DNA of 64,000 nucleotides from Strigamia acuminata (Eukaryota), in contig OX442314.1 of the NCBI GenBank assembly GCA_949358305.1, positions 10,292,001 through 10,356,000 of the forward strand, in the 5' to 3' direction. Positions within the stretch are counted from its first letter, which is position 1. Each line of letters begins with the position of its first letter. Below the pieces are notes generated by a model. It ran no database searches, was not told where the DNA came from, and saw nothing but the letters and a program-made list of their open reading frames with translations. A program made the translations under genes and the position numbers. Below, one piece after another: positions 10,381 through 59,274 of this stretch.

Positions 10381-10935
10381 TATATTTTGTGTATTTTCTA
10401 TTTTCTATTTTTTTTCTGGCATGTTTTTTATTGAGAATAAAGTGTATGAATTGAGTTTTCGAAATTAAACTTCTGGAATAAGGTATGAACAGATCTAAAA
10501 TGATTAATTTCAAAACAAATAAAATAAAATAAACGAGAATATCACAAAAAAATTTAATATTTCTCACCAAAACTAAAAAAAATTCTCTAAATATTTAATG
10601 ACCCAATTGCATTAAGTCTCTATCCGAAATTATAACTTATTTTTATGCTAATAATTTTTTATTAATCTCGAAAGTACTCGTAAATTGCATCGCACCGTAA
10701 ACATCTCTAAAGCCCTGCTAAAACATCCAGGATCCGCCACTGGTCCGCAATATACATTATACGCACAACTGCGATACTATCGTAGGCCTAATCCTCGGCC
10801 TAATCGGCCCTGAATCTACTATAACAAATGTGGCTATGATTCGCTTCGAAAAACGTCTACGAAAAAACCAAAATTAACACCAATCAATAATAAAAACACC
10901 AATTTCCTTCCCTTAATTGAATAACAACACAAACC

Positions 10936-11153
10936 GAACAACTCCATAGCAACACTTGGTAAATTGTCATCAAAAGAAAAGCGACTTTGGCTTTGATTGC
11001 GCGGAATTGCAATTGAACGAGCAGGAAATGGATGCACAGTACGCACAACGCTCAATGGAGTTGCTCGATGGGGATGTGTTGTTTCGGGTGGCATTTTTCG
11101 TGCTGTTTACTCACCCAGGACAACTCGGAGGTGTTTTAGACAAGTTGCCGTGT
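10936..11153 (+). repeat. Copy of a dispersed repeat also at ~13757-14142
   Basis: Shared TTGGTAAATTGTCATCAAAAGAAAAGCGACTTTGGCTTTGATTGCGCGG and CAGTACGCACAACGCTCAATGGAGTTGC blocks. Confidence 0.85.
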
Positions 11154-13199
11154 CCTTTTTGCAGTCTAGGATCTTCTGCGTCGACTTTTTGATGTCTGCA
11201 TGCGGCTTCTTGCTAAACATGACTACCTTGATTAGAACTAACACCCTTTTTTATATGTCTTAAAACCTTTATTTAATTTACTCAAAAATAAAACTACAAA
11301 CGCTTAAGCGATACCACAATGGACGACTTTGACTGTCCCCGCCACCTCTTCTTGGAATCGCTGTTTAAAATAAGAAAATAATGAGAAAATTGCACAAAAA
11401 ATAAAAATTAAAACACTTTTATTTACTCGTCGACGAACTCTTCGTTCGGATCGATACTCGGTTTTAAACTGAGTAACGACAAGTCGGCCGTGGCAGTTAA
11501 ATGAGTGTACGGACGGAATTGAATTTGTTTGGATGAATCATCGCCGTTTGAAAAGCGACCAAAAACCAACCATCAAAAACTACCAAAAACTACCAAAAAG
11601 CTCCAAAAGGTGCATCAAATAATATTCTTGCCAAATAAATACTCAATCGCCACACACCTGAAGAAATACAGAAGAAAATACAATTCGAACTAGGCCTATA
11701 GTAGGCCTAAGATGGCGCCAAACAATATCAAAAGAAAAAAAATGGATCATTTAGAAATATGAATTCAAACTTGCTGAGAAATTTGCAGAAATGTAAATCC
11801 CATGCTTATGAAACCAACCAACCTTTTTGAAATCAAACCCGAGTAAAATTCCGTGAAAAACGAACACAGCATGTCGAACAGCAAAATCTTGCTGTTCATC
11901 TCGCCTTGTGCTGAGCGAGACGAAATTACGTGACAGATTATTGTTAAGCGCTGCCCATGCGCAGAAAAGAAAACAATCCGACGACTACGGAGACTTGTTG
12001 GGGCCATCGTGTCTTTTTCTTGCATCATGGAGACTTCACTTTCTACAACTCCTGTTCTGCGTCTTAAGAAACCATCCATCATTTCACGGCTTATTTTTCA
12101 ATTGTTGCAATTTTTTCCGACTAATTTACCACATTTGTTCACATTTTACTGTCGGAGTTTTGGTGTTCGCTCGTGATAGCTGGTTGCCGTGACCTCGTGG
12201 ACTATGGGGTAACAATTAAATGCGGCGCGCTTGTGATCGCGTGTTAGTGTCGAGTGAGCCAAGCAAAAGACAAAATGATTTTTCCAAAGCTCGGAAAACT
12301 TTTTAAAATTATTATTTTATGAATTGTATTAAATTACACAGACTATATCTGCGGATGCCTCGCTGCGTTTTTGCGAGTTGTCATGTTTTAATTAGGCTAA
12401 TAGTGTATGTTAAAAACGTAAAAAAAATATACAAAAAATTGATTTTAAAGCTATATTATTTTATTATATTAGCCCAGGTAAACACGTTTAGAGGAGTTGG
12501 GAAAACCTGGCAATTTTACAGTTGGAACAAACTACTCGAATCCGGCGCCACAGAAATTTCGTGGTGGCAGTGGGAAATTTTGGCAGGAATTTTCGCAATT
12601 ATCATTGTTTTTATTATCGATTAGAAACCACATCTCACAAAAATGAGTTACAAGTTACAAAATGAGTTATAAGCCCCGGCGCAGCACAGGTGATTTTGCA
12701 GCTTTAATTTGATTATTTTTATAGTAAAAGTCAGGATCACTACTCTCCCCGCTACATTTTCATGTTCGTATTATTCATCATTGCAATAACTTGTCTTTAT
12801 GCGTTTGGCGATATCGATGGGAAATGCCATCTTTAAAGCCGGTGCAGGACATTTAATGTTCGTGGGACAAGAGATTAAGCCGAGGAACATACATCTCGAT
12901 CACTCGCCGTCGGAGGAGCTCATCGCAGATTTCTTGATGAAAGCGGTACCAGCAACAAAGTTGGAGTCGGGACGAGAGTAAAGTCAGGCATTAGACCGTG
13001 ACACAATCCAGAGTGTTATAGCAAGGAACCTTGCAAGAAAGCACTGTTGTGATTCCAAATATAGCACAAGCGTTAAGCCTTAATTTGGACAAACTACACC
13101 GTAGAGTTAACTCTTTTTTTTTTACAATGTGTGTCTATTGGTTTATCCGCTGGAATTCTATGTTTATAGTTAGTATCAATTCAAGTAAACCTAAGAAAT

Positions 13200-13705
13200 T
13201 CAGGCACTGTTATTTGTCAAAACAATTTGTAACATTTTTGGTCATTGAGATAAGCCAAAAAGATTACAACAGCGTGGAACAAAAACGAATTGGTCATCTG
13301 TAACTTGTGTAATACTGTAGAACTGCTCAAACGGGATTTAATGAAGTGCCCGACCACCCACTGGTTTTGTCAAAATTGCATAAGGTAGCAGGCCGAGAAG
13401 GAAGTGTCCCGAGGCAACTGTAAGATCGATTGCCTTCACCCAGCCCAGATTGCCGAGAAGTGTACTCAGTAGTGGACCTGAAGGAAGTTTTATCGGTTGC
13501 CTACCGAAAATTGTATTTAAAATCACAACTGGAATTAAAGTTAATAGAATTTAATTTGGTTTTGTCAGAGAAAAGGATTTATAAAGGACGAAAGATGTGT
13601 GTTTTACAAAAAAGTTTATATAAGTTGACATGGGAGTGCCAAGTCACATTTTTGGAATGAAGATTTGTTTTAACAAGAAGAGATTTATATTGAGCCAAGA
13701 AGATC
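13200..13705 (+). mobile_element. Highly decayed Ty1/Copia-like remnant
   Basis: KRIGHL..FCQNCI resembles the GAG-pre-integrase motif and FGMKI...ILSQ resembles Copia RT; broken by stops and deletions. Confidence 0.5.
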
Positions 13706-13854
13706 AAGAAGAACAAGAAAGCGCCACTACCAACAGACCAGGATCTGGACATGTACCCAACAACTCTACAGAAACATTTGGTAAATTGTCATCAAAAGAA
13801 AAGCGACTTTGGCTTTGATTGCGCGGAATTGCAATTGAACGAGCAGTTAGCCTC

Positions 13855-13998
13855 GACCGAACCCGTTTCCAGAAGGCGCAAGCCAGCCCAGACGAAACCA
13901 GTTTCCAGAACGCGCAAGCGGGCCCCGACCGAACCTCTTTCCAGACGCGCAAACGGGCCCCGACCGAACCCGTTTCCAGAACGCGCAAATGGGCCCCG
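13855..13998. repeat. ~36-bp GC-rich minisatellite, ~4 copies
   Basis: GACCGAACCCGTTTCCAGAACGCGCAAACGGGCCCC-type units; absent from the paralogous copy near 11020. Confidence 0.8.
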
Positions 13999-14650
13999 AT
14001 GATGCTCAGTACGCACAGTACGCACAGTACGCACAACGCTCAATGGAGTTGCACGATGGGGATGTGTTGTTTCGGGTGGCATTTTTCGTGCTGTTTACTC
14101 ACCCAGGACAACTCGAGGTGTTTTAGACGAGTTGCCGTGTCCTATTTATTCTCATCAAGTGTATTTATTTAGTAAGTTTAGTTTAGTTAGTTAAAATTAG
14201 TAAGTCTCGAGGAGTCCAGGGAAGCATTTTTACACTAGCGCTGAAAATTTGGCCATTTGGCAGCTCGAACAGACGGTCTTTAGTACTTTAGTCAACCTTC
14301 ACAAATTACATATAGAATAGGAATTAACGCCTACTCTGTTTCTGAGGTTGTCTTTCCAAAGTAAAAAAAATGTCAGAATAACATAAAATATGTCCAGTGC
14401 AAAGAAATCAACCTCCAGAGTTAACAAACTAAGGAATAAAAAAAAAAACAGGAAAAAAGCATCGCTAAGTGAATATTTTAGTAAATATAAATTTATAATT
14501 CACGTGTACGGTATTCTTAGTTTTAATGTGTTTAGAATAGAATAAATTTATTTATTTGTTTGTTAATCTGTTTTCATTTGTCAGTCTCATTTGTTTATTT
14601 GTTTATTTTGGAGGTGGTGTTAGCCCTTCTTAGGAATTAAACCTACAATA

Positions 14651-15461
14651 GGGGGTTTCATTATATGAATGATTTTGCAATTTTGTGATTTTGCATTAAT
14701 CACAAAATCATTATTTTTTGATGCCTCCAAAAATGAGTTTACATTGAATTAACCCAGTCAATTTTGCAATTGTGTGATCTGGACAACTTTGTGATTTTTG
14801 AGTATTGTCATGTGATATCTGTTCTCCCAATCACATTCACATTCACTAAAGTACAAGAGAGTGAAAACACAAAATCCCAAAATCATCTAAAAGGTAGTTT
14901 TTGTGATTTTGATGAGAAGTGATTTTGAGGCTTGTGAAAGTCAAAACAAAATGGAGGCATCCAAGCTCTATCTAAGTGGCCAACTTGTATCCTTGTATAT
15001 CATCAATATGCTGATGCATCCATGACTGTATAACAGCTAGGAAACTCAATTAATGGCTCTGGTACAATCTGTGAAACTTATATTTATTAAAATGCACCTT
15101 ATTAAAAAAAATTTTGTTCCATCACACAAATAGAACTAGTTATTTTGCATCACATTTTAAAATTGGTTGGGTATAACTAAAACCCAATATGGTGGATAGG
15201 AAGTCATGTGACTATTTAAATAATTGTTTTTGCACCTAATTGTTAATCACAATTTGTGATGGCCACTTGGATTGAGCTTGGCTGCTGTCATTTTGTCAAA
15301 ATAGCAAAACTACCTTTGATTTTGTGTTTTGTGTATTTTTTCTGTTTTGTGTTTTTGCAATTATGCACATGATTGGTGGAACTGATACCATGTGACAAAT
15401 CCAAAAGTGCAAAATTGCTAAAGTTGCAAAATTACAAAATTGTTTAATTAATGAAACCCCC
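14651..15461. mobile_element. MITE / foldback-like non-autonomous DNA transposon
   Basis: TIR GGGGGTTTCATTA / TAATGAAACCCCC flanked by TA (or AAT if the termini are 1 bp wider); further imperfect inverted blocks internally. Confidence 0.75.
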
Positions 15462-15474
15462 TAATATACGTAGT

Positions 15475-15577: not shown

Positions 15578-15804
15578 AGACACGTGTCGCGATAGATTGT
15601 GTAGGCTAGATGACACGCCCCCTGCAACAGGGCAAAGGTTGAAAAAACTAAAAATAATCCAAGAGCCAGCATATCTATTTTGCAAATACAAGTGGAGCTA
15701 AGAAATTCAGGCGCATTTTCGATAAGCAAAGCATAAACATTTGTTGGATATTAATTAGAAGTGCAATTTCCATCTCACGCAAGTCGTGGAAGAGCTGAAT
15801 ATTC

Positions 15805-16402
15805 TGTGACCGTCAGGCCACCTGGGTGACCTGCGGCACTGCCACACACCACCATACGGCCCCAAAGGTCAACCCCTCTGTGGGTGATTGACCTAGCCCG
15901 GGGAGGAGGGAGTGGAGTGGTGTGGTGAGGAGGGAGTGGAGTGTGAGAGGAGAGTTGAGTGTTGGACACGGCCTGAGAAGGACGTGTCTGCAGCAGCTCC
16001 CAGAGAGGAGAAGTAGTCATCGAGAGGGACGAGAAGTGTCCCAGGTTGAACCCCACACTCCTCACCATTCACCACGTTGATCCTCAGTGCTATGGCGGAG
16101 TCCGTAGTGCAGCCTCCATGAGCGGATACGCGGGTCGCAGGTAAGCGCGACATGAATGTTAAGTCGAACCGACCACGTCACACATTGGACTTCTGCCCAG
16201 TGTGTGACGGGTCGGTTGCCGGTGCGGCGCGCCTTCGTGGCGCCCCTGCAACGGGTAACGGGATTCCCCATACCCCTAGACAACGACAATAAAGGCCAAC
16301 CAACCAATATTGTGGGAATCTCTGTTATTATTACGTGATGTATGCGTCCCTACCCAGTGTGATTAGTCCCCTAGTTACATTGGCGAGACCATACCAGTCA
16401 CA
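15805..16402 (+). repeat. 5' LTR of element 1
   Basis: Same length and no differences seen by eye versus 27672-28269; contains CAG|GTAAGC donor at 16141 and AATAAA at 16288. Confidence 0.95.
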
Positions 16403-16404
16403 AT

Positions 16405-16429
16405 TGAGGGCCCTGTCCGAGATTTGAAC
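16405..16429 (+). promoter_or_regulatory. Degenerate tRNA-Pro-like primer binding site of element 1
   Basis: TGAGGGCCCTGTCCGAGATTTGAAC resembles the tRNA-Pro complement TGGGGGCTCGTCCGGGATTTGAAC, with mismatches. Confidence 0.6.
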
Positions 16430-18537
16430 TTGGAAAGTTTTTTTTTGATCCGCCATTTTGTTTTGCCTTGTGCTCAACCCTTTGTTTCATTGTGGTTAGC
16501 TTTTTGTCTCAATTTTATCGTTGTCACGTATTGTTTTACTAGTTGTTTCAGGTTTTTGTGCATTTTGCTTTATTTTTTGGCGGGGGTCAATTGTATTGTT
16601 TTTCATTTTTCTTTGTTTTGGACTTGGGTTAATTGCTTTTTTATGACCGGAATTGAGGGGGTATTCTGTTTACCACTTTGGGTCCTGGTGGGTTTAGTTG
16701 TGGGAGGCGGGGTGCTTTTTCATTTGAAGGTTGTTAAATTGTATTTTTCTCAGTGCTGGTGTGGTTGGGGCTCTGAAATTAATTTTTTCAGACGCACTGC
16801 AACCAACCAAAACATTGTGATATGTGTTTCTCTAATTGGCTTTGGGAGATTTGCTCACCCCTCGGTCAGTCACAGGGGTGCATGTCACGGTGTCTTATCT
16901 TTTGTGTTTTTCTCCCCTTGTACTGACTTGACCTCGCAGTGCTTTTGTCTTTATTTTTCAATTGCACTGTGTGTCTATTTTGGTGCCGGGTTGGGAAACA
17001 TTTGTTTTTCTTCTGCCACATTTTTTTCCTTGGTTTGAGCTGGGTATTGCTCAGATTTTTGGGAGATTTGTGCAATTTTCTTTTGTTTTATGGTAATTTT
17101 TCTTTTTGTTGGTCTGGCTGGAATTTGTTTGACTTGTTTTTTTTTCTGGTTTTGGCTTGGGTCGACCTGGATGTTTCCTTTAATCATCTTGGGGCGACGT
17201 TGGCCAACCAACGCATGAGCTTGATACCATTTTTTATTATTTTATAATTTTTCATTTCTTGGTGTGCAACCTATAGAGGGAGGAACCAGTTGGGGGTGCT
17301 CAGTTTTTGTGGTTTGAGGTGTTGGAATAGATCTGTTTCATCATCTCAAGGGCAATTGAGAGTGGCTGTTGAGTGTCTTAGAGGGTCGGCACCACACCGG
17401 ACAATTGGTGGATTTGGTTCCTTGATTCCTCTCTCAGGGTCGGGCGATTTGGTGCCTTTTCCGAGTGTGTTTTTTTTTGCGGGAAACGTGGTTGTGGTGT
17501 TGTTGTGGTGGGCGGGCATGCTGCTGGGTGCAGTATATCCCAGTTCAGCCCTGTGCCTCGCCCGGACGATGATAAACTAATGCGGTATATTTAGGGGAGC
17601 TCTGTTCATTACTGGCCAGAGGTACATTCCTGGTTTCAGCGGTTTGAGTAATCTTTTGAATCACAGGCGCACGTACTTCCTTGGAGCACACGGAGACTGG
17701 GTTTCCAACCCTGTCCCGGGCACTGGTGGAAGCAGTTTGGCATGATTTTGGCTTTTTTGTGTTTTTGTGGCCACTTATGGCACGTTTTTGTCAATTTCGC
17801 TGCCATTCTGTCGAAATTGGGTCTCGGATAGCGGGGAAGGCGGCCCTTGCAGGGGACTGCTTGGGTGTCGAGCCTAATGGTGTTTGCTCTCGGACCGCGC
17901 GTGGGATGTTTGCAAACACGAATTGGGTGGCTAACGGCTTTGAAAAGAGACCGTGAATCCAGCCCAACATTCTTTGTTTTCAATGTGCTGTGTGTAGATG
18001 ATTTTGTGATACACGCCACATTTTTCTCCTAACCTTTCTCTTATACTATTTCTACTCTATTTTCATATCCGGATTGGATTGGGAATGTGACACTCCTGGG
18101 GTGTGGACCTAACACATCCTGGCGTTGGGCCGTGTTCAACAGTACTCTGCCCGGTCTAATCCAGATTCAGTCGCCGATTTCTCTTCACTCTTTGTCTGAG
18201 GTGACTGAGTCGATTTTTGCCTCATCAGGGTTATCGCGACCTTGATGGTGTTTTGGGTGTGAATTTGGTGCTTGAGCTAGCTATGCCAAAGGAAGCCTAA
18301 AATACGCGATTTTAGCGTTTTCAGCAGGGGTTAAAACTGGTGGCAGATGTATACACCAGCGCAAAGGAAAACGTACGACCTTAGCATCGAAGCTGTGGGG
18401 CGCGATGAGAAAATGCCACGAAAAATCGATATACGCAGTTTTTTCTACTTGGTTCTGGCGCGAATAATTTAGAACACGAAGGGAAAGACAAACCGTGCAT
18501 TGTGTTTGTTAGTTTGGGAGTGTCAGTAAACTTCCAG

Positions 18538-18754
18538 TCGCCCATTTCTATCTTCTGGGGCGTGGATAAATGCCGGAAAGGTGTTCGCCAGTTTCTATCT
18601 TCTGGGGCGTGGATAAATACCAGAAAGGTGTTCGCTAATTTTTTATTTTTTGGGGCATGGATTAAAAATACCAAAAAGTGTTCGCTAATTTTTTATTTTG
18701 GGGCGTGGATTAAAAATACCAAAGTTTAACCGCTAATTTTGTATTTTGGGGCGC
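18538..18754. repeat. ~46-50-bp tandem repeat, ~5 copies, with GC-box-like cores
   Basis: TTCGC..TTT.TAT.TT.TGGGGCGTGGAT.AA.ATACC units. Confidence 0.85.
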
Positions 18755-19287
18755 AGAGAAGAGCCAAAATTTGTTGTTTTTATTGTTGTTCAATAATTAA
18801 AACTATCTTGTAATAATTTATTATGTTTTATTCTTTATAGTACATTTTAAATCAGTAGCAGATTTGCATGACGCAGTCAGGGTATTGAACCATTGACCTC
18901 GCAGTTCTTCTGCTTAATCGACTTTTAACCCTAAAAGCATGAACTCTGATGAAAGAACAGGATGACACCCCTGGTGCATACCTTTTGTCTTCGCCAGATG
19001 CTTCATTGCCAAATTACTAAAAATAGCTTTGTAGATCTTTGAAGCACCGTTAAGGCGCCCGAAGGTCCAACACATGGCCGGTGGTTGGACATCCCATCTG
19101 AAGGGGAACTGGAACCTTTTTGCAAATTACGGTTGACCTAGTTGTGGGCGGCAGTGATTGGTTAAGGTGACCCTGACGTTTGTTTGTTTATAGGAAGTGG
19201 AGAAGTTTTCGAATAATTCCCCACTCCTAGCTTGTGCGTGGTCTTGATCACACTCACGAGATACCACTGACAAGAATCGGAAAAAGA

Positions 19288-22197
19288 ATGGCAAGCACGG
19301 AACTTGACCCGGCTTGGGCCAGAGAACTGGCCATTCTGTGCGATGTTTATCCATGCGAGATGAAGACGCAGGATGACGTCGTGAGAATCATTAAAAAATA
19401 TCAACGCGACAGGCGGCAGGCAGTGCTTGGCGCCGCCGCTGCCCGTAGCAGCGCGCGTTGGTCCAACTTTGCAGCGAAGCGGGCGCGTAAAGCAGCTGCT
19501 CGCACTCAGAAGGAAGTTACCGAAATGGTGGAAGCTTGGGCAAGATCCACCGTTTCACTCCGGAACGATTTTTCAAAACGCATCTTTGAATTGTCCAGGA
19601 GAGCGGCTGTTGCTCAAGCCGTTGCTCAGGACGACTCGGATGTCGAGGGTGAGCAGGAAGATGCGCCAGATTTGATCGCGGGGAACGACGTGGTTGACCC
19701 CGCCGAACTCTACGACCGGATCTCGCCCTTCCAAGCTCTAAGAACGACTGAAGCAGACGAAGGCGTCGTAACAGACGGCTCGTCGCCCGGTCAAGTTTGT
19801 TTTGTCGGCTTAGCCGTTGGTGCGGTCTGGGATACTGTGAACGTGGCCGGACTGGGGAAGGATCTGCCTCTCCCGTTCGTTGACATTCATTTTTCCGACC
19901 GCAGCGCGGTGGCACTCATGGATTCTGGTGCTTCTGGGCAGTATATGAGTAGTGCCGCGGCCGAGGAATACGGACTAACAGCCTCGATTGAACCCTGCGA
20001 TGATTTTGTTAGGGTTATGACGGGCGGTAGAGTCACCAGTCCCGTCGGGACGGTGAACGTGCATGTCAGCTGGCAGACGGGAGCTGATTGGTTACGGTTT
20101 GCAGTGCTACCTTCCGCGTCTAACTTCATCCTTCTCGGGTGCAGTTGGCTTGGCGAGAATGGCATTGTAATTCGCATCGCCCGGAATGATTGGTATCATA
20201 TCGACAATCCGGGAGTAACGTTTCCTTTCGCCCCTCAGCCTGATCAGCTGGACGAAAAAGGCGCGGATGTTGACAAGTGGGCAAGGGTCACGCTGGAACA
20301 CGGCGTTGATGCGGCCGCACTGTCGATGTCATCCAATCAATTAGATCTATTGGAAGCCTGTAAAATAGAAGACATGCGGAAAGTGAGACTGACTCGTGTT
20401 CTCGACGAGTTTGGACACACCTTCAGCGAGACGGGAGGTTGTCATCCAACAGTAGAGTTGTTAATTCCCACGGGTGATACGCCGCCTTTCTCGTGCAAAG
20501 TCAAACACACATGCCCAGCGGAGGCGAGAGCTCTCCGCCGTTTAGTGCGTAATGCGCTGAAAAGGGGCGAAATAGAGGAAAGCGTTAGTGTCTATAGGAG
20601 CCAGCCAGTCGTAAGTATGTTACCTGATGGAACCTTTGATGCTTGTATAGATTTCAGACAACTGAATGCTATCACGGAGAGGGATGGGTATCAAGTCCCG
20701 TCGATCCCCATGATTTTGGCTTGTCTGGAGGGGAGTATGTTTTTCTCGACGTTAGATCTGGCGATGGGGTGTTTCCAATTACGGATTGCGCCGCTAGACA
20801 GACCTAAAACAGCATTTTATACACCCCTTGGTACTTTTCAATTTGTGAAGTTACCTTACGGTTTGTTGAATACTCCTATGGCGTTTCAACGACTGATGGA
20901 CAAAGTACTCGGCGATGCGAAGTTTAAGTGGGCATTGCCCTACCTGGACTCGATCGTCGTGTTCAGTAAAACATTCGAAGAACATTTAACGCACTTGTCA
21001 GATGTGCTAGGCAGGTTGAACAAGCATTGTTTGACCGCCAGCCCGTCTGGTTCGTGTATTTTATCGACCTCTTGGGATTTTCTGGGCTATTCGATGACTC
21101 GGTACGGTTTCCGACCGAACGAACGCCGCGTTCAGGCGATTGTGGATTATCCGCAACCGAGGAATGTCGCTCAGCTGCGACGTTTCCTTGGCATGTTCGG
21201 CGGAGACACACCGGCGGTCGAGGGTCTCGAACATCTCTCGAATCCACTGGAAGCGCTGCTTAATGACGGCGCTGCGTGGAATTGGTCCAATGAGTGTCAG
21301 GGTGTGTTCCAGCTCTTCAAGGATCATCTTGCGCGTGGGAGCGTGCTTCCTATGCCTGAGTTCAACAGAACTTTTGTCATCCAGGCTGCCGCAAGTAGAG
21401 TTGGGCTCGGAGCAGTCCTCACACAGATGGATCATCAAGGAGTCAAAAGGCCCGTTGCCTACGCGAGTCGTGCGCTGCAAGGCGCCGAGACAGCGTTCAG
21501 CCTGTCAGAATTGGAATGTCTGGCGGTTCTGCAGGCAGTCGCTTCCTTTCGACCATTCATCGCGTACTCGAAGTTCGTCATCGAAACAGGTTGTATGGCG
21601 TTGCTCTGGCTTTTGTCATCAACGAGCGCGTCAGGTCGCCTGGTGCGATGGGCGATGCAACTGCAACAGGTGAGATTTTCGATTAGGTTTAACGAGCGTG
21701 CGGACGACAGGATCGCGGTCGCTCTTTCAAAGGTTGGCCTAGATGACGTGGAAACGACATCGGCGGCTACGCCCGAGGAAGAAGCTGCGATCATGCTGGC
21801 CCACGCGCTCGTTACGGAGAGTCTCGCTGGTACGATCATGTCTTACGACGAGGTTAGACAGGTCCAGCGAGATGACCCGGACTGTAGCGCTGTCATGAAA
21901 TGGTTAGATGAAGGGCAAAGAGACGACCATCTTTTGTCCCAACTCCCACCATCCATGGCGCAATACAAACCAGATTTCGTGTTCGGTGGGTACGGAGAAT
22001 TGTGCATCAATACCCCGTTTTCACCCAACACACCACTAAGCAGGGCGGAGCACGGCTCGGATGTAAAAATCTTGATGCCTGCACCACTGCTTGATTGCTG
22101 CCTTGACGTCATTCGACTGCATCCTCGTTATGCGCAGGATAACGCGGCCGACATGGTGAAAAGGTTGCGACGACTGTTTTTCTGGCCAGGAACGTAG
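19288..22197 (+). CDS. Pol-like protein (969 aa): protease, catalytically substituted RT and RNase H, stop at the start of integrase
   Basis: ALMDSGAS (PR), CIDFRQLN, FSTLDL, LPYGL, YLDS instead of YLDD, IQAAAS/ELE/ETGC/IAVALS in RNase H, ends FFWPGT*; ATG in AGAATGG context. Confidence 0.88.
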   Translation: MASTELDPAWARELAILCDVYPCEMKTQDDVVRIIKKYQRDRRQAVLGAAAARSSARWSNFAAKRARKAAARTQKEVTEMVEAWARSTVSLRNDFSKRIFELSRRAAVAQAVAQDDSDVEGEQEDAPDLIAGNDVVDPAELYDRISPFQALRTTEADEGVVTDGSSPGQVCFVGLAVGAVWDTVNVAGLGKDLPLPFVDIHFSDRSAVALMDSGASGQYMSSAAAEEYGLTASIEPCDDFVRVMTGGRVTSPVGTVNVHVSWQTGADWLRFAVLPSASNFILLGCSWLGENGIVIRIARNDWYHIDNPGVTFPFAPQPDQLDEKGADVDKWARVTLEHGVDAAALSMSSNQLDLLEACKIEDMRKVRLTRVLDEFGHTFSETGGCHPTVELLIPTGDTPPFSCKVKHTCPAEARALRRLVRNALKRGEIEESVSVYRSQPVVSMLPDGTFDACIDFRQLNAITERDGYQVPSIPMILACLEGSMFFSTLDLAMGCFQLRIAPLDRPKTAFYTPLGTFQFVKLPYGLLNTPMAFQRLMDKVLGDAKFKWALPYLDSIVVFSKTFEEHLTHLSDVLGRLNKHCLTASPSGSCILSTSWDFLGYSMTRYGFRPNERRVQAIVDYPQPRNVAQLRRFLGMFGGDTPAVEGLEHLSNPLEALLNDGAAWNWSNECQGVFQLFKDHLARGSVLPMPEFNRTFVIQAAASRVGLGAVLTQMDHQGVKRPVAYASRALQGAETAFSLSELECLAVLQAVASFRPFIAYSKFVIETGCMALLWLLSSTSASGRLVRWAMQLQQVRFSIRFNERADDRIAVALSKVGLDDVETTSAATPEEEAAIMLAHALVTESLAGTIMSYDEVRQVQRDDPDCSAVMKWLDEGQRDDHLLSQLPPSMAQYKPDFVFGGYGELCINTPFSPNTPLSRAEHGSDVKILMPAPLLDCCLDVIRLHPRYAQDNAADMVKRLRRLFFWPGT

Positions 22198-22560
22198 TTT
22201 TCCTTGTTCCGGTCGGACTCAAAACTAATGAAACGTTTATCAGGCGTAGACTCGACGATGCTCTCGTTACTGTCACGCCGGCGAACATAATTTTGGAGTA
22301 ATAAATTGCCCTGGAACGGTGACTAATTTGTAATGGTTGTATGTTTTTTTTTAATCACACTCACCCATGTTCAAACACGCCACCTGTTGCTCGGCAAAAT
22401 CGGTGCGTCGATCGGGAGGTCCGTGGCTAGTCGCAGTGGCCGCCGATCGATCGGTACCAGTCACAAGCATGTGATGCTGCCAAAATAGGTAGAAAAAATT
22501 GCTAAAATTGGTCGGAAAAGTTGGTCTAATGACCGACTTCCCGAGGCCAGTTTCAGCAGT

Positions 22561-22638
22561 CACGTGCAATCTTCACCGATGAGCTCGCGACGCTCTTATG
22601 ACGTCACGAATATCACGGCGGATCGTAGCCATGGCAAC
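22561..22638 (+). promoter_or_regulatory. Putative internal promoter of element 1 (E-box, CRE, RFX X-box)
   Basis: CACGTG at 22561, TGACGTCA at 22599, GTAGCCATGGCAAC at 22625, in a CpG-rich patch. Confidence 0.45.
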
Positions 22639-24619
22639 GGTCTTACACAGCACAGCCGCAATTTTTGAGCGTGTTTTCTTTCACTGCCCGAAAATCGTGG
22701 GTGTTTTTTTTTCGCTAAAAAATTCGAGAAAATGCTGTGGTTGTGAAACAATTTTTTTTTATGAACTTTTATGGTGTTTTTCTCCACATCTGTTGCAAGG
22801 GATCGTCTTTCAACTAGGGGATTGTTTATTTCACCAATTAGAGGGGTGAGGGTGTCGTGAGACCCAATCACAGGTCACGGGTCGGGGATTGTTCTATGTT
22901 TAGACAAAGTTTCTTGTTTCTGGACATCACCCCGTGTGTCACTTGTTTTCGTGAGAGCGAGCCGACAACATCAGTTTGCTGTTCTTGTCTGCGTTTTTCT
23001 TTCGAGACGTTTTTTTTTCGTGTGTTTTCTGATCGATGAAGGTAGGCTGCAATTTTTTACATCATTTGCTGTGCTCTTCCCTCGATCTACGCCCGTGACC
23101 GATTGTTTTCTTACACCCGGACCCCGATCTTGTATAAACTAGCGCGCGGGCTGGCAGCCTTTGGCCGCCGCTCACCGCTAGAGATGCTGGCGAATTGAAT
23201 GGTTTTTCGACTCGCCGCATCCAAATATCTTCACTGAAACACGGTTGATTACGATCAACATGTGTTCGGCGAGTATTTCAAAGCAACTTTTGTGTGAGGA
23301 AACCCGAAAATTTTTTTGCTGTTCCCTCTCACGAAACACTTCGTAACAATTTCTTTTGCATCGGTTTCGATTTACCATTCCATTGTTTCCCTGATTTTCT
23401 ATCACTTCCGTTTCATTTTCTTGCTTCGTTTTCTTCCAATGTTCCTGTAAAAGTTTTTTTTTAAATTTTTTAATTAATCATTTCTAATTTTTTTTTTTGC
23501 GCTTTATTTTTTTTTTGCTCTTATCTTTTTTTTGTTTTTTGCCTCCATTCGCCTGGCCCCCTTTTTTTTCTGTGAAACAGGTGGGTATCGGCGACAGATT
23601 CACGAGTAGAGTGGCAGAGGTTAATTTTTTTTTTGGCCCGCGCCTAACCCCTTGGAATCTGTGCATCCCCATTTCTATTGTCCCTAATTGAGGTCAAAGA
23701 CCCGCAGCTGGTCACTTGAGTCATCGGCGGCTTGATCAGAGACTGTCAGTGTAGGGGAACAATAGCATGTGGCGAGGGGTCGACGCCGCGGTAAAAGGAG
23801 CCGGGAAGTTCGCTTTCCGACTCACTCGTCACTGCGGCGCGACTCGAAGAAATCAAAGTCCGCATCTGTTTGGAGCTTTTCGTTCTTTTCTTTATTCTTC
23901 GACCCCTTCTTTGCTTATTTTGCCCCGAACTCGAGTTTTTCGCTCTCGTTCGGTTTGGTTTTGTTTTTTTTTGTTCACGTTTAAATTGGAGTTTTATTAT
24001 TTCTTTTCTCTTTTCGCTCGCTCCGGGTTGAAAAGGTGTCTTTTCACTTTTTCATCCGCTCGCGTGCTTTCATTAATGTAATCCTCTTTGTCATCATCGA
24101 TGTTCTGCTCGTGTGCTCGCGACTTGACTGGGTTTTGGTGCCGACGCCAAGGACTACCGGCATGCCGGGCCGTTGTGCAGAACGGTCCGCCATGTTGGTT
24201 GCGATTTACGTTGGAGTCACCATCCCTTGCCTTGTCGTGTCTGGAACTCGAGCAACCATCGTACCGCTAACCGAGCTCTACGCTTCGGTCGGGATTCCGT
24301 CATAATCCCGGTTCAATTTTCTTGAACCCAGGAAGGACTTTCGCTCACATCGTCGGAGCGCCGAGGCTAGGCTTCCGCCAGCTCGGTACCCTCGACGATT
24401 GTGTAACGTCCGGTTACGTCACGCGCTCTGCGCATGATCGGGCACTTGGCGCTGCGAGGCTGAGTTTGTCGCCCCCGCGTGCCAAGTTTTGTCCCCATTA
24501 TTTCTCCAATTCTTATTCTTTACTCTACGCTATTTTTTAGTTGTTCTTTTTCAATCCCATGCGTTTTTCAGTGGTTTTGACGGTTTTATTAATTGATTTA
24601 TTTTCTGTTTATTCTTTAG

Positions 24620-26944
24620 AAATCAGGAGATTCTGGTGATGATGGTTCGGACCAGTGGCGCATCTGTCCCGTTTGCCTCGGCGAACGGTGTCAGGTTGCG
24701 GCCAGCGGCTGGGAGTCCCCTTGCGGGAATTGTTTGGGACACGGATTAGTCCACTTCTCCGTGCCCAGACAAAGATGGTTCGTGCGACATTTGTCGAGGC
24801 AGGGTGGAGATCGTCATCACACCCGCCCGACAACGACGTGGATGCAGGTGGATTCCTGGGAGTCCAGGACACAGACCCTGGTGAGGAACGGTTTCGCGCT
24901 TCTCCCGCGTTGGCTGACGGTCGAGGCGGTGAGGATTCGGGACCAGCTGACTGCCCCGTCGAGTATCCCACAACCAGCGCGCCAGGTTCAGGCTGGACGA
25001 GCAGCGTCTGCAGAGGCGCCAGCCCAGCCGAGCCCGAAGCGCCAAAGGCAGGAGCCACCGCCCTCCACTTGGACGGAGGAGATGACCGTGCGGCACGCAG
25101 CCGCGATGGTGGATTGGCGTGCCACTCACCCCAAGGCCACGCCGTTCCAGGTGGAGTGCGAAGAGAAGCGTCTGCGTCGCCGCTTCAAGGAGGCGGCGAG
25201 AAGAGCGCGTGCCGACGCCGTACGGGCAAAGGCGTTGGAAGAGGCCGAAGCTGCTGCCGTACCGGCAGTAGCCCAACCGGTCGGGGAACCTGGAGTCAGC
25301 GAACAGGCCGCACAGGCCGTGTCCGTTGCTCTGGATCGCCCCGACAACGTCATCGAGCTGCCAGCGGGGGAACCCGGAGTCGAGGAGCAGGCTATTGCAG
25401 CTATGCCACTCGCTTTGGGCCTTCCTGTGGTTTCCGACGAACCGGTGATCGGAGCGTGCTCGGAGGAAGCGATTGCTTGCGCATCGTTTGCTCTCGGCCT
25501 TCCGGTGGACTCGTTCAACGGAACAGGCGGCCTTCCGCACCGTACCTGGGGTAGCCTCGCATCGCTGGCAGGATGGTCGACTCAGTCCACGCCACGAGAC
25601 GAGTGCTCGGTTCCCCAGGAGATGCAAGGCGCTTGCGCTGAGCTGCCAATGGAGCAGTGCGAGTCATCTGCCTCGGTGGAGGAAGAGTTCCAGTTGGCTG
25701 TTTCGGAGGACGACGTGCTGGAGTTGTCCGTCTTGGAGGGCTTGTCTCTCGAGGCGCAGCTTCTGCAACTCGCCGACCCCGAGACGGTCGGCATGGAAGT
25801 AGAAACGGCGACCGGGAGTGAGGAACCTGCCCAGGTACCACACCCCCCTGAGCAGCGGGAAGGAGCGGAGTTCCTCGAGCCCGTAGGGGGCCCGACGCCG
25901 CTCGAGATCGCCGAATTGCCGCCCGGAGCCCCAGTTGTTTGTGCTGAGCTGCTCATACAGGGTGTTCCCCGTCTTGAGCACGCGCACGAGCAAACATTGG
26001 CGCTCTGGGTTGCAGAAGCGAAGCGTTGGAGGGAACTCCATTTACGCTTCGAGGATGCCAGGGGGAGTGACATCCGAATGACCCGAGCGGTGGCACTGAT
26101 AAGACAGAGAATGTGGATCATTCTCAGCATCCCCTCTGTCGCGTCAGCAGCAGCAAGGAGGCTCAGGTGGTTCGAGACTGTCCGGATCGTCGCATGGACG
26201 GTCGGGGCGGCCATGAACGCCTGGTACCTCCATCTGCCGTCACCGTTTGCGGTTCAGGAATGGACGCTGGAGGAGACTGTCGGGGCGGATTTCGCCGACA
26301 TCGATCCATCGGTCTGTCGCGGCTACGTGGAGACGCTGGCGAGTTTGCCCAAGCTGGTGGACAACCATGGCCATCAGCGGGTGTTCAGACCGGCATCCCA
26401 CGTGCCCGTCCCGATCGAGATGCCTCCGGAGCTGGCAACACTATCGCCGCCACCCCCACCTACTTACGAGGAGGTAATCGTCAAGCGGGTGCATAGGCGG
26501 AAGGCCTACAAGGACGACTTCAGCGCCAAAGTTTGGGACCCGGTGGAGGCCGAGTATGATGCGCGCAAGAAGGAGGTGGAACGCGAGCGGAAGAGGAAGG
26601 AAAAGGGGAAGAAGTCCCGCAAGGCCGCGTCCGGTTCCACCCCAACGAAGGGCGAGAAGGGAGCGCACTGCGCACCACTTTCGCCAGTGTCGACGGCTGC
26701 TGCACCAATGGTGGAGAAGGTTCGATCACATCCTTCCCCATCAACGTCAGCAGCTGAAGCGGAGGACAGGCGACTGATGCCACCACCACCATCCATACGG
26801 TCCGTGCTGGAGGCAGCGAGAACTTCTCCAGCCCCAGCAAGGCCCGCACGAGAGATCGCACCGGAGGTCGCGGCTGCGTCTGAAGAGGAGCCCCATGGCC
26901 CCTCTCAACCGCAGCCGCCGTCCAAGGATGCGCCGGAGCCGTGA
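24620..26944 (+). CDS. ORF3 of element 1, unknown accessory protein; terminal exon opening at a splice acceptor, upstream exon unresolved
   Basis: Frame open for 774 codons from TTCTTTAG|AAA at 24620; CPVCLG...CGNCLGHG, Arg-rich helix, acidic region, PPPPPTY, Lys-rich tail. Confidence 0.75.
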   Translation, partial: KSGDSGDDGSDQWRICPVCLGERCQVAASGWESPCGNCLGHGLVHFSVPRQRWFVRHLSRQGGDRHHTRPTTTWMQVDSWESRTQTLVRNGFALLPRWLTVEAVRIRDQLTAPSSIPQPARQVQAGRAASAEAPAQPSPKRQRQEPPPSTWTEEMTVRHAAAMVDWRATHPKATPFQVECEEKRLRRRFKEAARRARADAVRAKALEEAEAAAVPAVAQPVGEPGVSEQAAQAVSVALDRPDNVIELPAGEPGVEEQAIAAMPLALGLPVVSDEPVIGACSEEAIACASFALGLPVDSFNGTGGLPHRTWGSLASLAGWSTQSTPRDECSVPQEMQGACAELPMEQCESSASVEEEFQLAVSEDDVLELSVLEGLSLEAQLLQLADPETVGMEVETATGSEEPAQVPHPPEQREGAEFLEPVGGPTPLEIAELPPGAPVVCAELLIQGVPRLEHAHEQTLALWVAEAKRWRELHLRFEDARGSDIRMTRAVALIRQRMWIILSIPSVASAAARRLRWFETVRIVAWTVGAAMNAWYLHLPSPFAVQEWTLEETVGADFADIDPSVCRGYVETLASLPKLVDNHGHQRVFRPASHVPVPIEMPPELATLSPPPPPTYEEVIVKRVHRRKAYKDDFSAKVWDPVEAEYDARKKEVERERKRKEKGKKSRKAASGSTPTKGEKGAHCAPLSPVSTAAAPMVEKVRSHPSPSTSAAEAEDRRLMPPPPSIRSVLEAARTSPAPARPAREIAPEVAAASEEEPHGPSQPQPPSKDAPEP

Positions 26945-27671
26945 AAAGCCCTGATCGTCGTCCTTAGACGCCGGAATTGTACAAACGACGGACCTCTGGT
27001 CCCGATAATATTTTTTCCCTAAACAGGATTCCATGAGATGCCTGTCCCAAGACATGGACGCCGAGCCAGTGCGAGTGACGAGACGGTGACGCCGCGCCAC
27101 GCGCTCAGATGCCCGACGAAAGAAGACGTCGGAGGTTTCCAATGTTCCTGGAACCTCCCAACCGTGGGTCTTGGTCAGATCCCGGTTGATGTATATAGTT
27201 ATTTATTTTTTTCTTTCTTTTTTTTTCTTTTCCTCGTTTGTTTAACGTAATTGTTTTGAAACATTCTTGAGAGGCTTGACCAACCTCTCCCATCCTTGTT
27301 TTACCTTTTAATTTAATTTGTTTATTATTATTTTATGTCAATATTTTTCTTTTTGTTTTGTTTTATGGTTTGCTCCCGGGCTTGTTACGTTCAGGCCCGG
27401 TGAATTATTATTTGCATTGTAATACCATCAATAGTTTGTTTTGTTTTCGGCCAGTCTAGGGTTGGGTGTTTTCCGTTGCCCAACGTTGCTCGAACATCGT
27501 GGACCGACGGTGCGGTGATCCTTTGGACAACCGGCACCGGAAGTCAGCGCCGGTAGCCCGACAGTGTGTGGTCTTTGACCGACACTATTGCCGTGCTTGC
27601 CTCGACTTGCGTGTCCCCGTTGGTGTTGTGTGTGGCCCCTTGGAACCTACCTTTTTCGAGGGGGGGGGAGA

Positions 27672-28269
27672 TGTGACCGTCAGGCCACCTGGGTGACCTG
27701 CGGCACTGCCACACACCACCATACGGCCCCAAAGGTCAACCCCTCTGTGGGTGATTGACCTAGCCCGGGGAGGAGGGAGTGGAGTGGTGTGGTGAGGAGG
27801 GAGTGGAGTGTGAGAGGAGAGTTGAGTGTTGGACACGGCCTGAGAAGGACGTGTCTGCAGCAGCTCCCAGAGAGGAGAAGTAGTCATCGAGAGGGACGAG
27901 AAGTGTCCCAGGTTGAACCCCACACTCCTCACCATTCACCACGTTGATCCTCAGTGCTATGGCGGAGTCCGTAGTGCAGCCTCCATGAGCGGATACGCGG
28001 GTCGCAGGTAAGCGCGACATGAATGTTAAGTCGAACCGACCACGTCACACATTGGACTTCTGCCCAGTGTGTGACGGGTCGGTTGCCGGTGCGGCGCGCC
28101 TTCGTGGCGCCCCTGCAACGGGTAACGGGATTCCCCATACCCCTAGACAACGACAATAAAGGCCAACCAACCAATATTGTGGGAATCTCTGTTATTATTA
28201 CGTGATGTATGCGTCCCTACCCAGTGTGATTAGTCCCCTAGTTACATTGGCGAGACCATACCAGTCACA
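27672..28269 (+). repeat. 3' LTR of element 1
   Basis: Direct repeat of 15805-16402, preceded by PPT, followed by TSD ATTC. Confidence 0.95.
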
Positions 28270-28834
28270 ATTCTCTGGAAAGAGTTTTCCACTACAAGTG
28301 AATTAATTAAGCGACAGAGACTGAACGTTGTTGTACAGCCAATGAAGGAAAAAAGTCGATGGCAAGCAATGCCTAAAGAAACCGACGAAGGATTTTACTT
28401 TGAGAAATTTTTCGTCGAACATAGAGGTTAGAGGTTTTAGCAGTGAATGGCTGCAGCAGTGCCAAACCAATAAACAATTTAGTGTTTCATATAGTTGTAT
28501 ATTATTTCCATTTGTGTGATTATGCAGAAACACTAAGAGTTTTGCATTCATGAAGGTTCTGTATGGCGGGTCAATTATTATCATTCACACGCAAAGCGAA
28601 AATAGTAACACTTGCAACTAAAATGGTTCAAAGGAATGACAGCCCAAGAAGCAGATTAGGGAAACTAAAATGACTATCAGATTAGCCATTAGACCTTTAA
28701 TTTAGTTGCAGGAGCTAAAAAGCTAAAAAGCTAAAAAGCTAAAAGAACAAAAATTGTAAAAACTCAGAAAGAAAAAAGATTTCGTTTTTAAAGAAAAATC
28801 ACACGAGTATGGTTTGTCGTTCTTATAAATTGTT

Positions 28835-30404: not shown

Positions 30405-31187
30405 AAAAGGATTTATAAAGGGCGAAAGATGTGTGTTTTACAAAAAAGTTTATATAAGTTGATATAAAAGTGCCAAGTCACATTTTTGAACGAGAAGGGA
30501 ATTGTATTGAGCCAAGAAAATCAAGAAAACGCCACTGCCAACAGACCAGGATCTGGACATGTGGAAACACTCCAAGAAAATTGTTTGTACAGTTTATCAA
30601 GAGATGATTGGAAGTGGGAACATCAAGATACACCATGTACGATGCTCAGTTGGACCGTAGGATCTCCATAAGCAAAGTAGAAAACGGCAGGGGTTGAAAC
30701 CCCACAACCGTCTCCATTTGAAAGCGCACAAACGCCTCCAAAACCAGTTTTCAAAAATCATCATTTAAGAAATATCGTTGAAATCGGATACAAAGTAAAA
30801 AACGAACCCGAACCATACCAGCTGTGCTGGAACAGAGCCGGACAGGGCAAAGGTAGAAAAAACTAAAAATAATCCAGGAGTCAGCATATCTATTTTGCAA
30901 ATACAAGTGGAGCTAAGAAATTCAGGCCCAGTGTTTTAGCGGTGAATGGCTGCTTTCTCACAGCTGCAGCAGTGCCAAACCAAAAAACAATTTAGTGTTT
31001 CATATAGTTGTATATTATTTCCATTTGTGTGATTATGGCGGGTCAATTATTATCATTCACACGCAAAGCGAAAATAGTAACACTGGGAAGTAAAATGGTT
31101 CAAAGGAATGACAGCCAAAGAAGCAGATTAGGGAAACTAAAATCATTATCAGATTAGCCATTAGACCTCTAATTTAGTTGCAGGAGC
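30405..31187 (+). repeat. Condensed duplicate of sequences flanking element 1 (~13572-13754, ~15627-15712, ~28434-28714)
   Basis: Shared blocks AAAGGATTTATAAAGG..., CAAGTGGAGCTAAGAAATTCAGGC, GCAGCAGTGCCAAACCAA...GATTAGCCATTAGACC. Confidence 0.85.
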
Positions 31188-34053: not shown

Positions 34054-35173
34054 GTCTGTCTTTTCTGAAGAAGAAATAGCCTGTACTTTTCAAATTCTAC
34101 AAACCCTGGTGTTGATTTGGTACAACTGTGATTTGGTTTCCTTGTCTTCGGCACTTTTTTTAGGCTTAAAATTGAATATTCTCGACGGAGGTGGGTTAAA
34201 AAGAAGGGAAAGAAAATTGTTTAAATTCTTACTTGGTTAAACTTGGACTGTCCTAGCCTCACTTTGGGTTGAAATGGAATATAGTTGTTTTACAGTGGTT
34301 TTACTAGATAAAATCTGTCTTGTTCTTGTCCTTGAATTTTAAATTTCTTGGAAAATTCAAAGTTGATTTTATAAATTCTCATCTTGGAGAAAATACAAAG
34401 GTCATTGTGATAAATTGAGCTTTATTAATCACAAGTCTTCCACATTTTTAATACTTATATAAAGAAAAAAGTATAGGCCTAGAATTCATGTTTTGAACTT
34501 GAGAATACAAAAAAAAATTGACTTTTTGTCACAAATTTTTAACCCAGTACAGAAAATCATAATCTATTTCATTATTCAGCAATGACTAACCATAGACCCA
34601 CATTTCATGACATGCATATTCAGCCTTGGATGGTCTATTTTCAAGACTGAAAAACCTTGTAAATATCTTTCAAAATTCAAATTCAAACCCAGTTATGGCG
34701 ATAAAAAGTGTTTCTTACTTGTTTAGATGTTACCTTTACCAAAATATTAATAAAAATTGAGCAATAGTTAATTTACATTTCATGTTTCTATATTTCTAGG
34801 TTAAAGACCAACATGAATATAACCCATCTCAAGCCTTTATGAATTTGATTGAAATAACAATTTTCAAAACATTTCTTGGATACCGTAAAAACAAAAAAAA
34901 ATCAGTGGAAATTTGGAAGACAAATGCTTCAGTACAGGAAGGTAATCGCACATTAAAGGTAAATTGGTAAACTCTGTCCATAAAATACACGCTTTCGGGA
35001 TATTCTGGTAGTAATTCAAATCTTACAAAACATTTGAAACTAAAACATAAATCAGCATTTGCCGAATTTGAGGGCGTTGACTCTTTCAGCATTGAAATAT
35101 CGAAAAGGAGATCAAAATACGAATGCTGATACCCAGAGTAGACTCAAAGTTAAATTTACTTGTTTAATTTCAA

Positions 35174-59048: not shown

Positions 59049-59274
59049 TTTCGTTTTAACCCTATCGTTAATAAATTAAAAGAAACATTGAAAAATTTAA
59101 TTATTGCGGTTAAGTGAAGAAAATTGGTGAAAAATTCAAATATTTTCGGTTAAATGAAGAAAATTTGTGAAAAATTCAAATATTTTCGGTTAAATGAAGA
59201 AAATTGGTGAAAAATTCAAATATTTTTTTTATTTGTGAAAAACTCAAACATTGCCTTGAAACGCCTCTAAAACT

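Follow-up and report, generated by a model that had tools for sequence, protein, structure and literature searches.

Element 1 and its first open reading frame

The window analysed here is a stretch of 64,000 nucleotides from Strigamia acuminata (GenBank assembly GCA_949358305.1, contig OX442314.1, positions 10,292,001 to 10,356,000 of the forward strand), and all positions are counted from its first letter. It contains a Ty3/gypsy long terminal repeat (LTR) retrotransposon, here called element 1, whose first open reading frame (ORF1) encodes a Pol-like protein of 969 amino acids in which four of the seven catalytic residues of the reverse transcriptase (RT) domain and the ribonuclease H (RNase H) domain are replaced. 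A second Ty3/gypsy element (element 2, 36329-48110) is intact and young, with identical 631-bp LTRs and a 4-bp AACA duplication; besides gag it carries a frameshifted pol, in which every catalytic residue is present, as well as an integrase and a third ORF. The features of element 1 are listed below.

15805-28269, + strand: element 1, LTR to LTR; Ty3/gypsy element of 12.5 kb with identical 598-bp LTRs
15801..15804, no strand: 5' target-site duplication ATTC; identical four bases at 28270-28273
15805..16402, + strand: 5' LTR, 598 bp, TG...CA ends; identical to the 3' LTR, AATAAA signal inside
16140/16141, + strand: consensus splice donor in the 5' LTR; predicted from sequence, its use presumed
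16403..16428, + strand: primer-binding-site (PBS)-like stretch; resembles the PBS-like site of element 2
19165..19193, + strand: predicted 3' splice acceptor upstream of ORF1; branch-like CTGAC, pyrimidine tract, AG
19288..22197, + strand: ORF1, pseudo-Pol of 969 amino acids by translation, ATG to TAG; in order, a basic and helical N-terminus, an acidic linker, protease, RT, RNase H and the N-terminal remnant of an integrase
19288..19632, + strand: ORF1 amino acids 1-115, basic (22 K/R), predicted helical; no family match, predicted local distance difference test (pLDDT) about 40-74
19873..20223, + strand: aspartic protease domain, amino acids 196-312, DSG intact (Asp212); Pfam PF13975 E 3.6e-6, pLDDT about 90
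20413..21357, + strand: RT fingers, palm and thumb, amino acids 376-690; PF00078 E 6e-17, third catalytic Asp and several contact residues of the deoxynucleoside triphosphate (dNTP) pocket and thumb replaced
21358..21735, + strand: RNase H fold, amino acids 691-816; PF17917 E 1e-27, three catalytic Asp replaced, Glu kept
21844..22191, + strand: remnant of both the RT-integrase linker and the integrase N-terminal domain; without the zinc ligands and not followed by an integrase core
24620..26944, + strand: ORF2, 774 codons stop to stop; opens at the predicted splice acceptor 24619/24620
27658..27671, + strand: polypurine tract (PPT), clear in the sequence
27672..28269, + strand: 3' LTR, 598 bp; identical to the 5' LTR
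28270..28273, no strand: 3' target-site duplication ATTC; matches 15801-15804

Element 1 has direct LTRs bounded by TG...CA, a short target-site duplication and a Ty3/gypsy-type RT, and its domains run in the order protease, RT, RNase H, integrase, the last being present as an N-terminal remnant only. By lineage, element 1 is a recently inserted Ty3/gypsy LTR retrotransposon. Its PBS-like stretch at 16403-16428 is one that we take to be tRNA-Pro-like, with mismatches; no tRNA gene for comparison lies within the 64-kb window. Element 1 was searched for gag with Pfam, and with tblastn using the three proteins of element 2 and 106 homologues as queries, and no gag match was obtained; no integrase core was found by tblastn with the same queries. 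The tblastn search returned two short weak matches, both outside ORF1 (E 0.01 and 0.03). A highly divergent gag remnant may lie within amino acids 1-115 of ORF1. With no gag and no integrase core found, and with 4/7 RT/RNase H residues replaced, element 1 does not qualify as an autonomous element.

ORF1 has no internal stop, and the remaining five frames of 19288-22197 contain 30-46 stops. A preliminary description of this DNA, made from the letters alone, had claimed an open frame of 969 amino acids without stop or frameshift, in which the protease DSG persisted and the integrase zinc finger was lost. Translation of the + strand bore out the open frame, the DSG was located at Asp212, and the zinc-finger region was found to be a remnant without the His pair, the frame stopping ahead of the CxxC. 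The DSG and LLG motifs of the ORF1 protease agree with 32 homologous proteases (DTG or DSG in 32/32), and the PF13975 match scored 27.9 bits, slightly below the cut-off of 28.2. When amino acids 1-330 were used to search the ESM Atlas, protease clusters only were returned, all under 0.9. The best match of ORF1 among solved structures was Ty3 RT (PDB 4OL8; E 4e-58).

The ORF1 ATG is the first ATG 3' of the consensus acceptor ending at 19193, and it has a good start context. ORF2 and the third ORF of element 2 each begin directly at an acceptor, and spliced third ORFs are typical of LTR elements (PMC5408684, excerpt). From these signals, we infer that the ORF1 protein would be made alone from a spliced message. 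Joining of the LTR donor to the ORF1 acceptor (16118-16140 + 19194-19230) would also create a short upstream frame, running from the ATG at 16118 to a TAG at 19228-19230; this TAG is in frame with ORF1 and stands 57 bases before the ORF1 ATG. ORF2 has a CxxC...CxxC motif near the N-terminus, an acidic low-complexity middle and, towards its end, a basic stretch; the first ATG lies 75 codons into ORF2, with which the LTR donor is out of phase. For ORF2, no Pfam match, no usable ESM Atlas match and no clear transmembrane stretch (maximum 19-residue hydropathy 1.48) were found; it lacks the fusion-protein features of an errantivirus env, and it showed no significant similarity to the third ORF of element 2 (best E 0.07).

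Replaced residues and the fold around them

The residues of ORF1 were compared with the Pol of element 2 (39790-43977), the alignment giving 31% identity over 640 columns. YLDD of element 2 is YLDS in ORF1 (Ser555, codon TCG, 20950-20952, with no position shared with an Asp codon), HTDAS is QAAAS (Ala701), QTDH is ETGC (Gly768) and VADALS is IAVALS (Val811), as had been claimed from the first inspection of the sequence. The accompanying remark on multiple codon changes holds for Ser555, whose TCG needs several; the other three replaced codons are single-step. By alignment, residues 555, 701, 768 and 811 map to Ty3 D214, D358, D426 and D469 (numbering of PMC5371799, excerpt). Asp was present at these columns in 51, 51, 51 and 50 of the 51 homologous RT-RNase H rows, namely element 2 and those 50 of the 106 homologues that span the whole RT-RNase H, and all seven catalytic residues were present in 48/51 of these rows. 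ORF1 retains 3/7 of them, Asp490, Asp554 and Glu743. In addition, the fingers Arg that is present in 41/41 intact references is Asp in ORF1, the fingers Lys (39/41) is replaced, the steric-gate aromatic residue (Tyr or Phe in 41/41) is Cys, and the thumb Tyr and Arg, which are nucleic-acid contacts in Ty3, are replaced. The fingers and pocket positions are those labelled K65, R72, Y115 and Q151 in the RT of human immunodeficiency virus.

The preliminary description had regarded the lost Asp residues as required for catalysis. For Ty3, RNase H is abolished by D358N and D426N and merely reduced by D469N, and the D214N and D214E enzymes are active in vitro with lower processivity and lethal for transposition in vivo (PMC5371799, excerpt). 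The requirement therefore stands for the D358 and D426 equivalents and does not extend to the D214 equivalent in vitro or, in full, to that of D469. Since Ty3 RT withstands replacement of the equivalent of the lost RT Asp in vitro, the argument that the polymerase is dead rests also on the other lost residues. Judged from the sequence, the ORF1 RNase H is very likely dead, because the D358 and D426 equivalents, each essential in Ty3, and the D469 equivalent are now non-acidic. Polymerase activity is likewise very likely absent, with the third Asp and the dNTP-pocket and thumb contacts gone.

At 21 catalytic or substrate-binding positions, the commonest residue was kept at 7 in ORF1, at 15 in element 2 and at 15-20 in the 41 intact, non-redundant references. 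Among columns conserved to at least 60%, ORF1 keeps 7/18 functional ones vs 111/169 others (Fisher P 0.038), and element 2 keeps 14/18 and 119/169 (P 0.60). When the threshold was raised to 80%, hydrophobic, Gly or Pro columns were kept in ORF1 more often (48/62) than charged or aromatic ones (15/31; Fisher P 0.009), a contrast that is not seen in element 2 (46/62 and 27/31) and that was still observed for ORF1 at 90% (P 0.020). Columns of the hydrophobic class were kept in 102/110 cases, inside the intact range (minimum 0.90), and the conserved Leu residues were all retained (12/12); the lysine content of ORF1 is below that of all 41 references. Mean identity to the homologues was 35% for ORF1 vs 36% for element 2 in the fingers and palm, and 16% vs 16% in the protease. 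Random decay would erode the core and the active sites together, and the pattern in ORF1 fits a release of the catalytic and binding sites with the fold constrained.

In an AlphaFold model of ORF1, the protease, RT and RNase H were obtained at pLDDT about 90 (mean pLDDT of the model 75.6 vs 82.3 for an intact control), a confidence that is not independent proof of folding, as the alignment fed in consisted of intact Pols. The thumb helix had been described as altered, which is real in the sequence, but in the models it has lost only three residues relative to the intact control (9 vs 12), the pLDDT of the thumb block being 81/70 vs 90/89. A subunit-B-like shape of ORF1 (template modelling score 0.62 to 4OL8 B vs 0.56 to A) was considered and dropped, the intact control behaving alike (0.71 vs 0.58). 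Structure prediction against Ty3 RT thus gave no support to the asymmetric-dimer idea put forward earlier, given that the intact control equally prefers subunit B.

Other copies, relatives and the rest of the window

Copies of element 1 were sampled in three DNA runs (one organism label, two studies), one of which may be the source of the window; run X6 (6/30 bins covered) was left out, and contig depth was not taken as copy number. The three runs contain 57-65% of the words of element 1, and 1917, 3520 and 1094 of their contigs match 15600-28500, in all identity bands and with 30/30 bins covered. RNA runs were absent from the listing of matching runs, which carries no information on expression. 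Element 1 belongs to a multi-copy family with variants. Its flanks (15600-15800 and 28270-28500) also occur repeatedly in the runs, where 15712 is joined in contigs to about 28434-28450, different letters standing in between, so that element 1 seems to be inserted inside another repeat. Main-family copies are about 0.3-3% different from this one, whose two LTRs are identical; the family differences therefore likely arose during replication.

The rows used for the comparisons below are the best-supported ones and not a random sample. None of the best 40 of 1986 differences fell within the four replaced codons. The listed main-family pieces spanning these codons differ by only 1 to 9 other letters, and one such piece over residue 701 has a single difference, which is accounted for elsewhere. 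The replaced catalytic state is thus probably family-wide. Eight of the best 40 of 1986 differences lie in ORF1 (5 synonymous, 3 missense, 0 stop), against an expected synonymous share of 0.28 derived from the runs' own mutation spectrum (P 0.045). In ORF2, five listed differences at 25416-25427 were excluded as one cluster, probably an internal repeat, and 4/5 of the unclustered differences among the best 40 of 1986 are synonymous, so that ORF2 too looks constrained. ORF1 and ORF2 jointly gave 9/13 synonymous among the best 40 of 1986 (P 0.003). The best 12 of 379 insertions and deletions (indels) include none in ORF1 or ORF2 (P 0.02-0.04 for 5-6 independent internal ones).

Among the best 32 of 6688 pieces, five are 15-17% divergent within ORF1, all with zero net length change, and four are 9-13% divergent and lie outside or run out of the ORFs, all shifted by 1-2 bases. 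Related subfamilies keep the length of the reading frame, as seen in 5/5 of the listed 15-17% divergent ORF1 pieces. In one divergent piece, the gap-free alignment extends to 22197, where the stop codon ends, and the remaining 172 letters are unaligned; this hints at a shared ORF end, and a relative with a continuing integrase fits as well. The kept frame of the divergent pieces and the best eight ORF1 differences are indirect signs only of purifying selection. Under neutrality, the probability of an open ORF1 frame was calculated as 5e-4 on a 7.5% branch (7.5 stops expected) and 7e-3 on a 5% branch, indels uncounted, where the 7.5% branch assumes half of the 15% subfamily divergence on the lineage of ORF1.

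Three word-based protein searches gave 58, 48 and 0 matches (best identity 42%), and a full HMMER search of 1.84 billion representatives listed 150 matches with an identity of 27-41%. In the protein collections searched by both routes, no protein above about 44% identity to ORF1 was found (per-domain maximum 44%), nor was an orthologue of ORF1 as a host gene. None of the 150 matches listed by HMMER has more than 2/7 catalytic sites changed in its best-aligned stretch; one site is changed or gapped in 18 of them and two in 1, and 61/150 are not aligned or not canonical over all seven sites. A quick tree placed ORF1 as sister to element 2 with a Shimodaira-Hasegawa-like approximate likelihood ratio test (SH-aLRT) value of 94, the placement being unsure owing to long branches (ORF1 2.0 vs element 2 1.19).

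Elsewhere in the window, host genes were recognised by Pfam, of which nanos, nidogen, COG2, the B12-dependent methionine synthase and the short-chain dehydrogenases are intron-split.

171-853, 4784-5134, 9823-10377, 33700-34089, 50176-50589, 58491-58835, 60822-62837: host genes by Pfam, SAYSvFN protein, ThiS/MoaD-like, COG2, nanos, two short-chain dehydrogenases, nidogen, B12-dependent methionine synthase

The two short-chain dehydrogenase genes flank element 2 on either side. The gag of element 2 is unusually long (949 codons stop to stop), an AAAAAAC slippery heptamer lies in its gag-pol overlap near 39865, and its third ORF, of 896 codons and with no Pfam match, opens at the splice acceptor 44589/44590. 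Two segments bounded by inverted repeats, 14641-15471 (52 nt, 77%) and 35183-35983 (124 nt, 86%), resemble miniature DNA transposons. A direct repeat of 154 nt occurs at 28562-28715 and 31034-31187 (95% identical, 2.5 kb apart), and the segments 10837-11260 and 13694-14170 are related, with near-identical translations and a 36-nt tandem repeat inserted in the second. The introns within 53759-63150 contain many AT-rich minisatellites with 10-nt and 20-nt units.

A candidate accessory role and its alternatives

The frame and the fold of ORF1 look kept by selection while functional residues went selectively. The preliminary description had suggested selection on the frame despite the loss of Asp residues, and both the targeted loss and the frame length of the subfamilies support this. 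Several observations weigh against the accessory role that is proposed below. The ORF1 protease is without the Asp after the second Gly motif that is present in 25/32 homologues. The 41 references were picked for holding all seven catalytic residues, which inflates their 21-residue score, and at the 95% threshold the contrast between hydrophobic and charged columns is not significant (17/21 vs 11/19, P 0.17). Basic columns are kept in only 14/29 cases (intact minimum 0.62). Identity to the homologues in RNase H is 36% for ORF1 vs 46% for element 2, which points to relaxed constraint in this domain. The 15-17% divergent subfamilies could be intact helpers, could contain stops or could conceal short compensated frameshifts, and 2-4 gaps were found in 3/5 of the divergent ORF1 pieces. 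Moreover, a spliced message without the primer site would have the ORF1 protein act in trans, which would weaken selection per copy.

Element 1 alone cannot make particles, reverse-transcribe or integrate, yet it moved recently, and a helper is therefore needed; helper dependence is likewise assumed for defective Retand elements (PMC11963269, excerpt). Our leading reading, held tentatively, is that element 1 relies on such a helper and likely encodes an accessory protein, a probably active protease borne on a non-catalytic RT-RNase H scaffold that would dock on the helper Pol or particle. The ORF1 protein would be translated by itself from the spliced message; with both RNase H and the polymerase very likely dead, the protease would be its one remaining catalytic site, and selection would maintain the RT-RNase H fold. 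In the least supported step, the folded RT-RNase H body and the basic N-terminus would carry the protease into the helper particle and permit its dimerisation, and the copying rate of element 1 itself would thereby be raised. Not being fused to Gag, the protease must enter the particle and form a dimer by some other route, for which the body and the N-terminus are the candidates. As a precedent, foamy viruses express Pol separately from Gag, through a spliced message, and their protease dimerises on RNA with the help of the RT domain (PMC6669543, excerpt). The loss of thumb and basic residues argues against such an RNA-binding route through the RT of ORF1 itself, so that docking between proteins would be the likelier route. 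Element 2 was considered as the helper and rejected, given 31% identity, different LTR ends and a single 35-base DNA match; it serves as a comparator only.

Other explanations were weighed against this accessory role. In one of them, which we regard as unlikely, the pseudo-RT joins intact RT dimers and poisons them, restraining the helper family and controlling copy number, from which the element lineage or the host would gain. The homodimer of Ty3 RT is asymmetric, subunit A providing the polymerase and subunit B the RNase H (PMC5371799, excerpt), so a subunit dead in both functions would disable such a dimer in either place, and the kept fold suits this role. However, element 1 needs the RT of its helper and, with identical LTRs, is recently mobile itself; Ty3 dimers assemble on nucleic acid and the thumb contacts of the pseudo-RT are lost, and the kept protease site is left unexplained. 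A little less likely again is a role of translation only, in which an open frame shields the element RNA from nonsense-mediated decay or remodels the RNA, the amino acids being loosely held, for example against misfolding. The absence of stops and net indels, the long ORF1 branch and the relaxed RNase H would all be accounted for in this way, but not the fingers and palm as close to the homologues as those of intact Pol, the 12/12 conserved Leu, the synonymous excess or the protease motif, and deletion of ORF1 would have been a simpler way to the same end. Ranked just below it is a two-part mutualism in which the element 1 family supplies the protease and ORF2 to a partner that gives Gag, RT and integrase and is itself defective in the protease or accessory function. 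Complementary non-autonomous partners are reported for plant pararetroviruses, some with protease but without RT/RNase H (PMC5491270, excerpt), LTR variants are abundant here, and one subfamily matches mainly in ORF1. Against such a pairing, no partner was seen, the active, intact gag-pol element 2 of the same broad clade has its own DSG, and the retention rather than deletion of RT-RNase H would be unexplained.

Recent neutral decay from a close intact relative, such as a 15-17% divergent subfamily, with the frame open by chance and through few rounds of replication, appears improbable. The catalytic codons of the subfamilies may be intact, three of the four replaced codons are single-step, and isolated losses are common in the Pols listed by HMMER (18/150 with one site changed or gapped, one with two). 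Yet the stop-free probabilities are low (5e-4 at 7.5%, 7e-3 at 5%, before indels), removal of two thirds of the functional residues would have cut the core identity, which is unchanged, and more than 2/7 changed sites occur in none of the 150 listed matches. Least probable of all, and very unlikely in our view, is an RT that is partly active with two Asp residues and is paired with the RNase H of the helper. Asp490 and Asp554 are kept, and Ty3 D214N and D214E retain activity in vitro, but Ser is a non-conservative replacement, the invariant fingers Arg is now Asp, the Lys, the steric-gate Tyr and the thumb contacts are replaced, and D214 mutants are lethal for Ty3 transposition. When the accessory role is taken together with dimer poisoning, mutualism and residual polymerase activity, it is probable that selection acts on the ORF1 protein.

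Element 1 was also compared with known systems. It is like the Ty3/gypsy elements (Metaviridae), Ty3 RT (4OL8) and element 2 in its LTRs, PBS-like stretch and PPT, the 4-bp target-site duplication and domain order, and it shares with element 2 the extra 3' ORF that opens at a splice acceptor. In contrast to autonomous Ty3/gypsy elements, no gag or integrase core was found and four catalytic Asp are replaced, and ORF1 starts at its own ATG, whereas the reference systems use a gag-pol frameshift. LARD, TRIM and TR-GAG are non-autonomous LTR elements, LARD and TRIM being defined by the lack of a protein-coding internal region; element 1, with two long open frames (969 amino acids and 774 codons), is neither of these two. 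In domain state, by sequence and model, the closest parallel is RTL1/PEG11, a domesticated Ty3/gypsy gene of mammals, and no sequence kinship is claimed. In RTL1, a single open frame under purifying selection joins a protease to an RT and an RNase H that are likely inactive but conserved in structure, with a ratio of nonsynonymous to synonymous substitution rates (dN/dS) of 0.30 (PMC10516033, excerpt). It is one fixed host gene and includes a capsid domain, whereas ORF1 has no capsid and belongs to a multi-copy element with identical LTRs. The identical LTRs and target-site duplication, the many variant contigs in three runs and the lack of an orthologue among the collections searched set element 1 apart from a domesticated gene. 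Retand non-autonomous clusters (PMC11963269, excerpt) and the rotifer TelKA2n (PMC5408684, excerpt) are recently mobile without essential domains and may keep an extra 3' ORF, but in these excerpts they lose domains by deletion and are not described as retaining, in an open frame, an RT-RNase H of full length whose active sites are replaced. The plant pararetroviruses eRTBVL2 and ePVCVL keep the protease, have no working RT/RNase H and depend on a partner, like element 1; they belong to a different virus family, and their RT/RNase H was deleted or replaced and not retained as a pseudo-enzyme (PMC5491270, excerpt). The foamy virus protease-RT is fully catalytic and its genome autonomous, so that the analogy to ORF1 concerns expression and delivery only (PMC6669543, excerpt). 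In open-licence PMC papers and bioRxiv, covered mostly by titles and the starts of abstracts, no such element was found described; a mention may exist elsewhere, for example in a repeat database.

More tentative than the accessory role itself is the wider proposal that a class of mobile LTR retrotransposons turned its own Pol into a pseudo-enzyme accessory, with spliced expression and a working protease on a dead scaffold that engages a helper; the 15-17% divergent subfamilies would be in the same condition, and the strategy would then be old and selected, a mobile counterpart of RTL1. The usual description of non-autonomous LTR elements is that pol was lost through deletion or decay, and an inactive, folded RT-RNase H is on record for RTL1, a fixed host gene, its function there being unexplained (PMC10516033, excerpt). 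The non-catalytic role of an RT-RNase H becomes testable in element 1, as a dN/dS series can be drawn from its many copies and, 14 kb away, an intact Pol of the same broad clade is available as a biochemical control. A mobile, multi-copy element with an RTL1-like state would mean that a pseudo-Pol can be selected before, or without, domestication.

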